The translations under genes and the position numbers were made by a program. A DNA stretch of 38,281 nucleotides, taken from the UHGV virus genome UHGV-0173928, one strand, 5' to 3'. The stretch comes from a virus. The notes beneath the pieces are model-generated. The model saw only the letters and a program-made list of their open reading frames with translations. It had not been told where the DNA came from and searched no databases. Shown piece after piece: positions 19,638 through 21,494 of this stretch. Position 1 is the stretch's first letter. Each line of letters opens with the position of its first letter.

Positions 19638-20326
19638 GCTGCACCATCACCTTTCACTTTCATCAATGTCAGGTTTCCACAAAATACGGCACCAGTGTCG
19701 ATATACTGCTGATTCCAGAATGTCTTCGGGCTTTTCACCGGAGTGTGACCAAAGATAAAACGATCTGCGCCCGAAATTTCGCCACCAATATCATCCATCG
19801 AATCACTGATACGCTCGCGCGCCCAGACAACGTTGAAAAGCGGCACCTCCTTACCGAATTGGTATTCATTATCCGGATAGTCGGCATGGGCTATAACGAT
19901 AGTTTCTTGCCCGGTGTTCAACTCAATGATATAGGGCAGACGCTTTACCAGCTCCACCAGCGCCCAGGCTAATATTTCCTGATCAGTGTCCAGCATGAAG
20001 AACCATTGTCCGCCATTCATTAGCCAGTTATTCACGTTGCCATCTGGACTTAACGCATCAATCATCAGCCGCTCATGGTTCCCCATCACTGCCCTGAACC
20101 AGGGCATCTGCAATAGTTCCAGACATTCGACATTTTCAGTACCGCGATCGATAAGGTCGCCGACCGATATCAGTAAATCCTGCGCCGGGTCAAAATCCAC
20201 ACGATGGAGTTCGGACATCAGTCTGGTGTAGCAACCATGCAGATCACCAACAACCCAGACATTCCTGTATTTGGTACCGTCGATACGGTGATAAATTGTG
20301 GGTGCCATCATGTATTCTTCAGCCAT
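19634..20326 (-). CDS. ppp: Ppp, lambda-PPase-like serine/threonine protein phosphatase
   Basis: GDLHG, GDLIDRG and GNHE metallophosphatase motifs in a 230-aa protein. Confidence 0.9.
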
Positions 20327-20934
20327 TCTTTAAGAGTCATCTGCGGAATACCTCCCATTTTCCCGCATGAAACAACGTCAATCCGTTCACGCGCAGACTG
20401 GAATAACAAAGGCAGGTGACTTAGATTTTTTGGCGTGCCGCCGGAGTGAACGCGTGGTTCTTGTGTAGCGTCAACGCCCACCAGGGCGACATGTTTGAAT
20501 CCGATATGGAAAGCCAGGTTCAGAGCACCATATGCACTATTGCCGCTGGCAATTTCATTCTCATCTTCGCAAAGGCCGAAATGTGCGGACCAGCGCCACG
20601 CCCACCACTCGGGAGAATTCGTATTTTTTGGCTCCATGCCGCGTTCAGCCACACGACGGAAGCACAGAACGCCATCTCTGACTTCACGTTCTTTAACATC
20701 GGGTAGTGCCATGCAATAACAAACACCACGGCGACGGCGGCCACGACCAACGCGCCGCATATTGTCTGGGGATGGATCAAGGGTGAAAAAATAAGAAGCG
20801 CGGTTAAGCCAGTCGATGGCCCCATTGACCGCTATAATCGGCACTCCGCGCGGCGCAACAAAGTTTGCGGCGCTTGGGCCACTGCCGACGATAATAACGC
20901 GATCACTGCCTCTAAATTTATTCTTGGGAAACAT
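20308..20934 (-). CDS. hypothetical protein, paralog of the next gene (P1 pmgP/pmgO-like)
   Basis: Shares GSGPS...IAVN...SG..GA..LA...VxLVGxD pattern with ORF 20832-21494. Confidence 0.5.
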
Positions 20935-21494
20935 TGAATTGCACTGCTCCTACTTGCATTCAAAATATGTAAATCTGCGTGTTTTTTGCGGGTATCCAGG
21001 AACTGCTGTTGCCATTTTGAAATAGACACCTGCGTTGGATTCCGTAGTGCTTGAGGGTGCGCGCCATGCCAATGAAGGCCGTTTTGCAGAGAACAGTCAT
21101 AGCCGACTAATACCACTACTTCAGCCCCTGATTCAGCAGCCAGACTGATAGCCTGCGCGCCGCTATTTACCCCTTCCGCCGGTCCACAATATCGCCTGTA
21201 CTCCAACGAAAATGATTTCGCCGCCGCCAGGTTGGCTGTCACTTTGCGGAATCTCCCTCCCGGTATGGTGGATCCGTATTGCTTCCACCATGACAAATCA
21301 CCGGCGTATAAGGCATAAATGTCATCGAACATCTGCCAGGAATTGTTAACCGCGATGATTGAACAGCCAGTTTTTTCTATAGCAGCACAGTCCTCACGAG
21401 TGAGTGACGGACCGCTACCGACACAAAAAACAGTCCTAGTCGCCCTGGGTGGTATGTTCATTCTCAGCTGCAAATTCAGCCTCCAGGCGAGCAT
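20832..21494 (-). CDS. hypothetical protein, paralog of the preceding gene
   Basis: Same motif set as 20308-20934; ORFs overlap by about 100 nt, so one start is probably internal. Confidence 0.5.
   Translation of the reverse strand: MLAWRLNLQLRMNIPPRATRTVFCVGSGPSLTREDCAAIEKTGCSIIAVNNSWQMFDDIYALYAGDLSWWKQYGSTIPGGRFRKVTANLAAAKSFSLEYRRYCGPAEGVNSGAQAISLAAESGAEVVVLVGYDCSLQNGLHWHGAHPQALRNPTQVSISKWQQQFLDTRKKHADLHILNASRSSAIQCFPRINLEAVIALLSSAVAQAPQTLLRRAECRL

Follow-up and report, generated by a model that had tools for sequence, protein, structure and literature searches.

The viral genome UHGV-0173928 (38,281 nucleotides; hereafter the window) carries pmgO and pmgP of a P1-like phage-plasmid, two overlapping minus-strand genes whose products are true but anciently diverged paralogs. 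We propose that these genes, together with the nearby pmgQ, form a late-expressed glycosylation cassette in which PmgO and PmgP would act as transferases, with a donor and an acceptor that we infer below. The probability of this reading is placed at roughly 0.6.

Identity of the Two Genes

Megablast placed positions 19600-22300 of the window at 99.2% identity to phage P1 (AF234172, NC_005856). The same stretch was 98-99.5% identical to other P1-like phage-plasmids, among them JL22, SJ46, RCS47, and P7. The open reading frame (ORF) listing of the window contains minus-strand ORFs at 20832..21494 (220 amino acids) and 20308..20934 (208 amino acids). P1 annotates these as pmgO and pmgP, each labelled "putative morphogenetic function". 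An earlier, sequence-only reading had described two adjacent minus-strand proteins of 208 and 220 residues, probably the P1 pmgO/pmgP pair, with an ORF overlap of about 100 nucleotides. The ORF listing agrees exactly with the two proteins, the assignment is borne out by the DNA identity and the same coordinates in the P1 annotation, and the exact overlap is 103 nucleotides. The shared motifs noted at that time are present in both proteins, in the forms GSGPS, IIAVN, and NSG/NSA...LA...G...LVG(Y/V)D. The region is pmgO and pmgP of a P1-like phage-plasmid, with the following features.

20832..21494, minus strand: pmgO coding sequence, 220 amino acids as annotated in P1, with an alternative start (M12) at 21461; predicted DUF115/MptE-like, Maf/Cst-like transferase fold
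20308..20934, minus strand: pmgP coding sequence, 208 amino acids; paralog of pmgO with the same predicted fold, and the more widespread and better conserved of the pair
21405..21419, minus strand: codons for the PmgO GSGPS motif (residues 26-30), which aligns with GNGPS of Cst-II in sub-threshold hidden Markov model (HMM) alignments
20872..20886, minus strand: codons for the PmgP GSGPS motif (residues 17-21), within the pmgO/pmgP overlap

PmgO and PmgP Are Anciently Diverged Paralogs

Pairwise BLASTP aligned PmgO and PmgP over the N-terminal 36 residues only (39% identity, E=0.004). Comparison with the PHROG families gave cross-matches, with E-values of 2.4e-5 for PmgP against phrog_4603 and 6.3e-4 for PmgO against phrog_2111. 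Because pairwise BLASTP was too weak as a test of paralogy, profile-profile comparison was used. Family alignments of 36 and 37 sequences were compared after removal of P0051, a natural fusion of the two proteins, to avoid profile contamination (P-numbers denote homologous proteins from the searches, and L-numbers the compared loci or contigs). At 98.2% probability (E=3.2e-14), hhalign aligned 163 columns, from residue 17 to 203 in PmgO and from 8 to 208 in PmgP, which is nearly the full length of both. At the profile level, the family consensus sequences are about 25% identical, and cross-family HMM matches reach 5e-9. Nine columns of the joint alignment are invariant in both families (P29, N50, D66, W70, N110, S111, G123, G131, and D133 in PmgO numbering), corresponding to the GSGPS, IAVN, NS[G/A], and LVGxD motifs. 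PmgO and PmgP are homologous over their whole length, and PmgP is often present without PmgO across loci. That their likeness is due to chance or to convergence on a glycine-rich nucleotide loop is hardly credible: the short and weak BLASTP match would suit such an origin, but it is refuted by the hhalign result and by the common top structural neighbours of both models described below, and it is also contradicted by their identical secondary-structure order, the nine jointly invariant residues, and the cross-family HMM matches.

Fold and Family Membership

AlphaFold2 models of PmgO and PmgP had predicted local distance difference test (pLDDT) values of 86 and 94, respectively. Structure searches returned Maf glycosyltransferase 5mu5 with scores of 14.1 (PmgO) and 12.8 (PmgP), the archaeal hydroxymethyldihydropterin pyrophosphokinase MptE 8sd5 with 11.1 and 12.9, the alpha-2,3-sialyltransferase Cst-I 2p56 with 10.6 and 10.8, and M. 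tuberculosis SteA 9hmy with 10.0 and 9.3, respectively. The top match was Maf for PmgO and MptE for PmgP, and thiamine pyrophosphokinases were further matches common to both models. PmgO and PmgP are accordingly modelled with the previously known DUF115/MptE-like Rossmann-type fold (PF01973), shared with its solved members Maf 5mu5 and MptE 8sd5. In a BFVD search, this fold proved widespread in viral proteins that are uncharacterised.

At the sequence level, the PF01973 matches of PmgO and PmgP are confined to the C-terminal third of the model. Among the homologs, 28 of 36 match PF01973 at E<=0.01 (best 5e-8), and several carry precomputed PF01973 matches. By sequence, PmgO and PmgP are best described as outlying PF01973 relatives, not core members. 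The N-terminal G-x-G-P-S loop after strand 1 and the NS[G/A]...G-x-D motif are invariant or nearly so in both families. A joint PmgO and PmgP profile searched against PDB sequences gave Cst-II (E=0.03-0.05), Maf (E=0.07), and Cst-I (E=0.24) as its best matches, with alignments that pair GNGPS and ITSG...LSGID and contain no individually significant stretch. With the PmgO-family profile, Cst-II alone was of note, also sub-threshold; the remaining matches (UlaE, a sugar kinase, and His-tag artefacts matching HWHGxH) were rejected as spurious. The PmgP-family profile gave no matches among PDB sequences.

RefSeq and PHROGs label PmgO "alpha-2,3-sialyltransferase". No hydrophobic segment was found in PmgO or PmgP (maximum Kyte-Doolittle 19-residue mean <1.6), and both are predicted to be soluble single-domain proteins of about 200 amino acids. 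PmgN, PmgO, PmgP, and PmgQ matched no PADLOC anti-phage defence HMM at E<=0.01, and a defence or anti-defence role was dropped on this basis.

The sequence-only reading had suggested a duplicated nucleotide-binding fold, uncharacterised as far as could be told, and had named pairwise alignment and structure prediction as ways to check it. The alignment was suggestive at best, the profile-profile comparison was significant, and both AlphaFold models with their common structural neighbours support a shared Rossmann-like fold. The paralogy and the fold stand, with "duplicated" to be understood as ancient divergence and not as recent tandem duplication. The fold can no longer be called uncharacterised, given its DUF115/MptE-like (PF01973) assignment and the existing database label.

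PmgQ and the Recurring Cassette

The HMMs of the PmgO, PmgP, and PmgQ families were scanned over 41 loci from genomes, viral contigs, and metagenome contigs. The viral-contig scan was seeded by a distant family member, an earlier scan having given near-identical P1-like loci only. PmgP and PmgQ occurred together in 39 of the 41 loci, the two exceptions being contigs of 1.4 and 3.1 kb. PmgO was found in 30 loci, nearly always directly upstream of PmgP. The PmgP family comprised 586 clusters at E<=1e-3 among 1.84 billion representative proteins. In the window, pmgQ and the gene between it and pmgP are located as follows.

18936..19637, minus strand: pmgQ, 233 amino acids; distant GT8-like glycosyltransferase by profile, with invariant D79-L-D81; phrog_1962 "glycosyltransferase"
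19634..20326, minus strand: ppp, lambda-type Ser/Thr phosphatase (PF00149, E=9e-16), between pmgP and pmgQ

PmgQ itself has no Pfam match. The profile of its family matched Skp1 alpha-galactosyltransferase 6mw5 (E=1.5e-6), GT8 5gvv (E=0.0036), and glycogenin (E=0.015), with GT8/glycogenin matches in the range of 0.004-0.03. Additionally, 6 of 26 family members matched Pfam GT8 (PF01501) weakly, with a best E of 0.026. On these profile matches, PmgQ is assigned as a distant GT8-like glycosyltransferase.

Natural fusions join the same partners. P0051 is a PmgO-PmgP fusion of 376 amino acids, P0219 and P0290 are PmgP-PmgQ fusions, and P0311 and P0270 carry the two domains in the order PmgQ-PmgP; these four measure 396-616 amino acids. 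A PmgP domain is also followed by an unassigned C-terminal half in P0330, P0340, and P0358 (about 400 amino acids).

In P1-like elements alone, the phosphatase gene ppp separates pmgP from pmgQ. It was rejected as a cassette member for this reason and is probably just context; elsewhere the two genes abut or flank a methyltransferase gene. An S-adenosylmethionine-dependent methyltransferase of about 189 amino acids (Methyltransf_23/25) occupies this position in several prophages (L095 4570-5139, L114 4073-4642, and L182 9573-10133), in the slot that ppp holds in P1. A second family, of about 190 amino acids with a weak match to PF03407 (GT-A; nucleotide-diphospho-sugar transferase), adjoins the cassette in unrelated phages and has no homolog in the window. 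Its members are listed below.

L003 9757-10335: PF03407-like family member
L096 4636-5184: PF03407-like family member
L181 10254-10835: PF03407-like family member
L186 9252-9827: PF03407-like family member

Variable extra members of this kind, a methyltransferase and a PF03407-like GT-A protein, are typical of glycan loci.

Genomic Contexts of the Cassette

In P1, pmgN lies upstream of pmgO and pmgP, and ppp and pmgQ lie downstream. The P1 annotation places a C1-controlled promoter/operator (Oppp) and the late promoter LPpmgL farther upstream, so that the cassette is downstream of both a late and a C1-controlled promoter. The operator was positioned from L001 6036-6052 in the P1 annotation by a gap-free colinear mapping (window = L001 + 15599).

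21436..21618, minus strand: pmgN, small ORF (51-60 amino acids), phrog_2350, function unknown; its 3' end overlaps the annotated pmgO start by 59 nucleotides (21436-21494), or by 26 nucleotides if pmgO begins at Met12 (21461)
21635..21651, plus strand: C1 repressor operator Oppp (formerly Op83), lying upstream of pmgN-pmgO-pmgP-ppp-pmgQ and carried over from the P1 annotation; sequence CATGCACTAATTAATTT

Among the loci examined, the cassette occupies late or structural phage regions and otherwise a few chromosomal sites. Five loci (L095, L101, L114, L179, and L181) hold it in head-gene clusters, adjoining the head-tail connector gene; these are HK97-type prophages of Zhongshania, Ochrobactrum, and Pseudomonas and two viral contigs. 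The major capsid gene stands directly before the cassette or one gene away in four of the five, and was not identified in L114. In another five lambdoid and other prophages, the cassette neighbours lysis genes. It follows the lysis cassette and precedes the terminase gene in L003, L004, and L182, lies between the antiterminator Q gene and the holin gene in L186, and sits inside a remnant lysis cassette in L185. On Pseudescherichia chromosomes (L183 380-14359), pmgO-, pmgP-, and pmgQ-like genes are interleaved with a 1166-amino-acid intimin/invasin-type gene and three additional Big_1-domain genes, an arrangement that suggests adhesin glycosylation. The layout of L089-L093 resembles this adhesin island. 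A stand-alone pmgP-pmgQ pair is found among metabolic genes in L184. All named hosts are Gram-negative, and nucleotide-sugar synthesis genes were absent from all loci examined.

Proposed Function and Alternatives

PmgO and PmgP both keep the motifs of the fold, namely GxGPS, AVN, an Asp after the third strand, NS[G/A], and GxD. Since these nucleotide-binding and catalytic-site motifs are retained in both, the two proteins can be read as active nucleotide-sugar-dependent transferases, as opposed to an enzyme and a dead copy. They would act with the GT8-like hexosyltransferase PmgQ to build a glycan during lytic or late growth. The donor for PmgO and PmgP would be host CMP-Kdo (cytidine 5'-monophospho-3-deoxy-D-manno-octulosonate), and that for PmgQ a uridine diphosphate (UDP)-hexose. 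CMP-Kdo is the likeliest candidate because no phage copy carries sugar-activation genes and the named hosts are all Gram-negative; it is the CMP-activated sugar common to all of them. The acceptor may be protein, i.e., virion proteins in phages and Ig-like adhesins in chromosomal copies, a guess favoured by the capsid-adjacent and adhesin-interleaved positions. Lipopolysaccharide (LPS) core is kept as the main alternative acceptor in view of the lysis-adjacent positions and a faint similarity to WaaZ.

Among the nearest described counterparts are the Maf flagellin nonulosonic-acid glycosyltransferases, represented by Magnetospirillum Maf 5mu5, with which the likeness lies in the DUF115 central domain. 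Maf enzymes span about 600-670 amino acids and carry flanking N- and C-terminal flagellin-binding domains, whereas PmgO and PmgP are bare domains of catalytic size. They align with the Maf central domain only (about 160 of 632 residues), lack its multi-domain architecture, and are 16-17% identical to it in sequence. They are also phage-borne beside a GT8-like enzyme, with no flagellar context. Maf activity needs E324 and D415 in MmMaf and D272, S334, and D357 in CbMaf; among the jointly invariant residues, D66/S111/D133 of PmgO equal D53/S133/D155 of PmgP. In E. coli, Maf enzymes can attach Kdo, taken from endogenous CMP-Kdo, to Ser/Thr by O-glycosylation (bioRxiv 10.1101/2020.06.03.131540; PMC11339370).

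Cst-I and Cst-II of Campylobacter jejuni (GT42; 2p56, 1ro7) are 13-16% identical to PmgO and PmgP, with matches below significance, and their lid and membrane-association regions are absent from the phage proteins. Candidate equivalents of the catalytic His188 of Cst-II are H141, H143, and H146 in PmgO and H173 in PmgP. Judged by linear motif spacing only, PmgO H141 would fall at the position of Cst-II Tyr162, which with Tyr156 contacts phosphate, and conserved His residues would follow (H143 and H146; H173 in PmgP). E. coli K-12 and most of the hosts are not known to make CMP-N-acetylneuraminic acid, and the sialyltransferase database label is therefore very unlikely to be literally right. 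Sialic-acid synthesis genes were absent beside the cassette in all loci examined.

Phage-encoded virion glycosylation has reportedly been described in mycobacteriophages, by Freeman et al. in 2023, and is mentioned in PMC11256854 and PMC12363180. The likeness to that case, glycosyltransferase genes of a phage being expressed along with its structural genes, is purely conceptual; those systems belong to actinobacteriophages.

Several observations weigh against the glycosylation proposal. PmgO (23.4 bits, E=5.7e-5) and PmgP (21 bits, E=3.2e-4) stay below the PF01973 gathering score of 34.6 bits, and every PDB sequence match of the joint profile is sub-threshold (E>0.01). The residues put forward as equivalents of the Maf catalytic ones were matched by motif and by like Ser-to-Asp spacing (22 residues in PmgO and PmgP, 23 in CbMaf S334-D357), not by superposition. 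The lysis-gene contexts and the stand-alone pair in L184 fit an envelope target equally well and do not indicate virion proteins. In the literature searched, glycosylation of the virion proteins of P1, or of the virions of any cassette-bearing phage, was not reported. Finally, none of pmgO, pmgP, and pmgQ is needed for plaques to form (PMC10695390), a finding consistent with an accessory role in decoration or modification. In the same study, pmgN scores essential by CRISPR interference and nonessential by amber-mutant data that its table cites (PMC10695390); a polarity artefact may be the cause.

Modification of the host envelope is an unlikely explanation. Here, a WaaZ-like Kdo transferase and a GT8 hexosyltransferase of LPS-core type would alter new LPS core late in infection, for instance so that receptors on debris are destroyed or other phages excluded. 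The LPS Kdo-III transferase WaaZ (TIGR04437/PF27901) shows faint N-terminal likeness, in the GxGPS region, to PmgP and to the PmgO-PmgP fusion, and a Kdo donor would suit the host range. GT8 includes the LPS outer-core glucosyl- and galactosyltransferases of E. coli, and LPS core glucose is the receptor of P1. The cassette moreover adjoins lysis genes in at least five prophages, and the chromosomal pmgP-pmgQ pair stands alone. However, the TIGR04437 score of PmgP is 11.9 bits (E=0.11) against an equivalog cutoff of 200 bits, PmgO has no match, and no waa locus accompanies the genes. The operons are late, C1-repressed or Q-dependent, and do not occupy lysogenic-conversion positions; with such placement, any change would be limited to LPS produced in the final minutes before lysis. 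In several prophages the cassette neighbours capsid and connector genes, and the chromosomal copies alternate with genes for adhesins and not with waa genes.

It is quite improbable that PmgO and/or PmgP are adenosine triphosphate (ATP)-dependent (pyro)phosphotransferases whose substrate is a sugar or small molecule, perhaps with a glycan being capped in the manner of the kinase-methyltransferase WbdD. The fold alone is compatible with a pyrophosphokinase, and MptE, the namesake of PF01973, is the top structural match of PmgP. MptE and the thiamine pyrophosphokinases have the same fold and another chemistry, which in MptE is ATP pyrophosphoryl transfer to a pterin. Against such an activity, the nearest solved proteins by sequence are CMP-sugar transferases (Cst-II, Maf, and Cst-I), not kinases, and Maf is the top structural match of PmgO. 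No folate-pathway neighbours were found; the constant partner is GT8-like, further GT-A genes join the cassette, and the ppp insertion is confined to P1-like elements.

Extending the glycosylation proposal, we tentatively suggest, as a possibility more doubtful than the cassette assignment itself, a minimal protein-glycosylation cassette in P1 and many unrelated tailed phages of Gram-negatives. It would consist of the pared-down Maf-like ulosonic-acid transferases PmgP with or without PmgO, the GT8-like PmgQ, and optionally a methyltransferase, and would use host CMP-Kdo and UDP-hexose on capsid or virion proteins. In some enterobacterial chromosomes, it would have been recruited for intimin/invasin-type adhesins.

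The pmgO/pmgP Overlap

The overlap between the two genes contains or adjoins the following features.

20832..20934, minus strand: overlap of the pmgO 3' end and the pmgP 5' end, with pmgP in the -1 (+2) frame of pmgO
20835..20867, minus strand: 11-codon PmgO extension of the P1 lineage, read across conserved pmgP coding sequence
20947..20951, minus strand: Shine-Dalgarno-like AGGAG, 12 nucleotides upstream of the pmgP ATG, in the invariant Ser-Arg codons of pmgO (AGT AGG AGC)
20913..20919, minus strand: A_AAT_TTA heptamer in the pmgO frame; a formal -1 slippery site, judged probably not functional
20925..20931, minus strand: T_TTC_CCA heptamer, made up of the pmgO C-F-P codons where pmgP starts; formally another slippery pattern, taken to be incidental

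We tabulated 22 distinct pmgO/pmgP junctions, 15 of them with long overlaps. The pmgP ATG sits in the conserved Cys-Phe-Pro codons of pmgO (xxA TGT TTC CCx, read as ATG TTT CCC). In the enterobacterial clade, the overlap is at least 40 nucleotides (40, 43, 49, 67, 70, 94, 100, and 103) and lays the last helix of PmgO over the variable first 13 residues of PmgP. In distant relatives, the overlap is 4-13 nucleotides or the genes are separated. Every pmgO stop falls within conserved pmgP coding sequence. In relatives of about 70% identity, the pmgO-frame TGA arises from the PmgP Ala-Met-Asn codons GCA ATG AAC (SAMNF). In P1, these codons are GCC GCA AAC (SAANF), the stop is lost, and 11 codons are added up to a TAG in the PmgP Pro-Ile-Ile-Ala codons. 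The extra PmgO tail has a pLDDT of 55-75 and is not conserved among homologs. AGGAG or AGGAGG also precedes pmgP in L087, L111, L119, and L122, and the presence of its own AGGAG supports independent or coupled initiation of pmgP.

The long overlap is mostly incidental and has no function of its own. pmgP would start from its own Shine-Dalgarno sequence inside the codons for the last conserved helix of PmgO, and PmgO would end in an unstructured read-through tail whose length is set by the chance position of a stop within conserved pmgP coding sequence. A programmed -1 ribosomal frameshift at either heptamer, producing a PmgO-PmgP fusion enzyme, is very unlikely. Three features would favour it: 21 of the 22 distinct loci show pmgP in the -1 frame relative to pmgO, two X_XXY_YYZ heptamers lie within the overlap, and the in-frame fusion P0051 is viable, with a junction near the expected slip point. 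However, 7 of the 15 long overlaps have no heptamer, and the other 8 vary in sequence and position. A_AAT_TTA is unique to the P1 type, and T_TTC_CCA occurs only with TTC as the Phe codon and is missing, for instance, from L004, L103, L113, and L116. The -1 relation is expected when stop-codon loss lengthens short ATGA-type overlaps, pmgP possesses an AGGAG of its own together with a conserved Met1, and the chance of a heptamer in a 34-codon stretch is about 0.1 by rough estimate. Frameshifting was set aside as the main explanation after the tabulation, as the slippery sites are not conserved. The overlap is a clean, small example of the passive origin of a long overlap, through stop-codon loss inside a neighbour's conserved coding sequence.

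Other Observations in the Window

Colinearity of the window with P1 extends through pmgL and its promoters and across roughly the first 200 nucleotides of gene 26, with 99.8% identity up to 22831. PmgM (21658-22236) has a VRR-NUC nuclease match just below threshold (21.3 vs 23.8 bits), and PmgL (22239-22484) has four Cys in a pattern resembling a small zinc finger; both carry the "morphogenetic" label in P1 without evidence. At a junction near 22826-22831 (region 22485-22831), the start of gene 26 is joined to the 3' end of dmt with nothing in between. The roughly 10.5 kb between dmt and gene 26 in JL22, RCS47, and P1 are absent from the window; on the P1 map, they would include tail genes 5, 6, 24, 7, and 25 and ban. 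Either the element is a deletion derivative, and so a defective phage-plasmid, or the junction is an assembly join.

The minus-strand ORF at 22825-24414 is C5-cytosine-methyltransferase-like and matches features annotated dmt in P1-like phages. Its C-terminal end carries what looks like a Dam-type N-terminal motif (FKWAGGK...EPFVGGG). P1 isolates cover about 74% of positions 1-19000 and Salmonella phage SJ46 covers 90%, and the matched features include a transposase and a RelA/SpoT-family protein. Given the partial P1 coverage and such features, the accessory content is mosaic relative to P1.

Conclusions

In the literature searched, no functional study of pmgO, pmgP, or pmgQ was found, and apparent matches linking DUF115 with phages proved to be DUF1156. 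The fold was known before, and existing annotation already implies the paralogy in part. The PmgP-PmgQ cassette with or without PmgO, its fusions, its late/structural and adhesin contexts, and the passive origin of the overlap seem undescribed in the literature searched.

P1 is a workhorse phage whose pmg genes are still under placeholder names. Our analysis turns a "putative morphogenetic function" into a testable assignment, two paralogous Maf/Cst-like transferases and a GT8-like transferase. If the broader protein-glycosylation suggestion is true, the cassette would be without precedent as a virion glycosylation system among phages of Gram-negative hosts and would provide a natural instance of protein O-Kdo-sylation. 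Glycosylated virion proteins would extend phage virion glycosylation from actinobacteriophages to the phages of Gram-negative hosts, would bear on immune recognition of therapeutic phages, and would offer very small ulosonic-acid transferases for glyco-engineering. If LPS is edited instead, the cassette would represent a new late-acting strategy of receptor modification.

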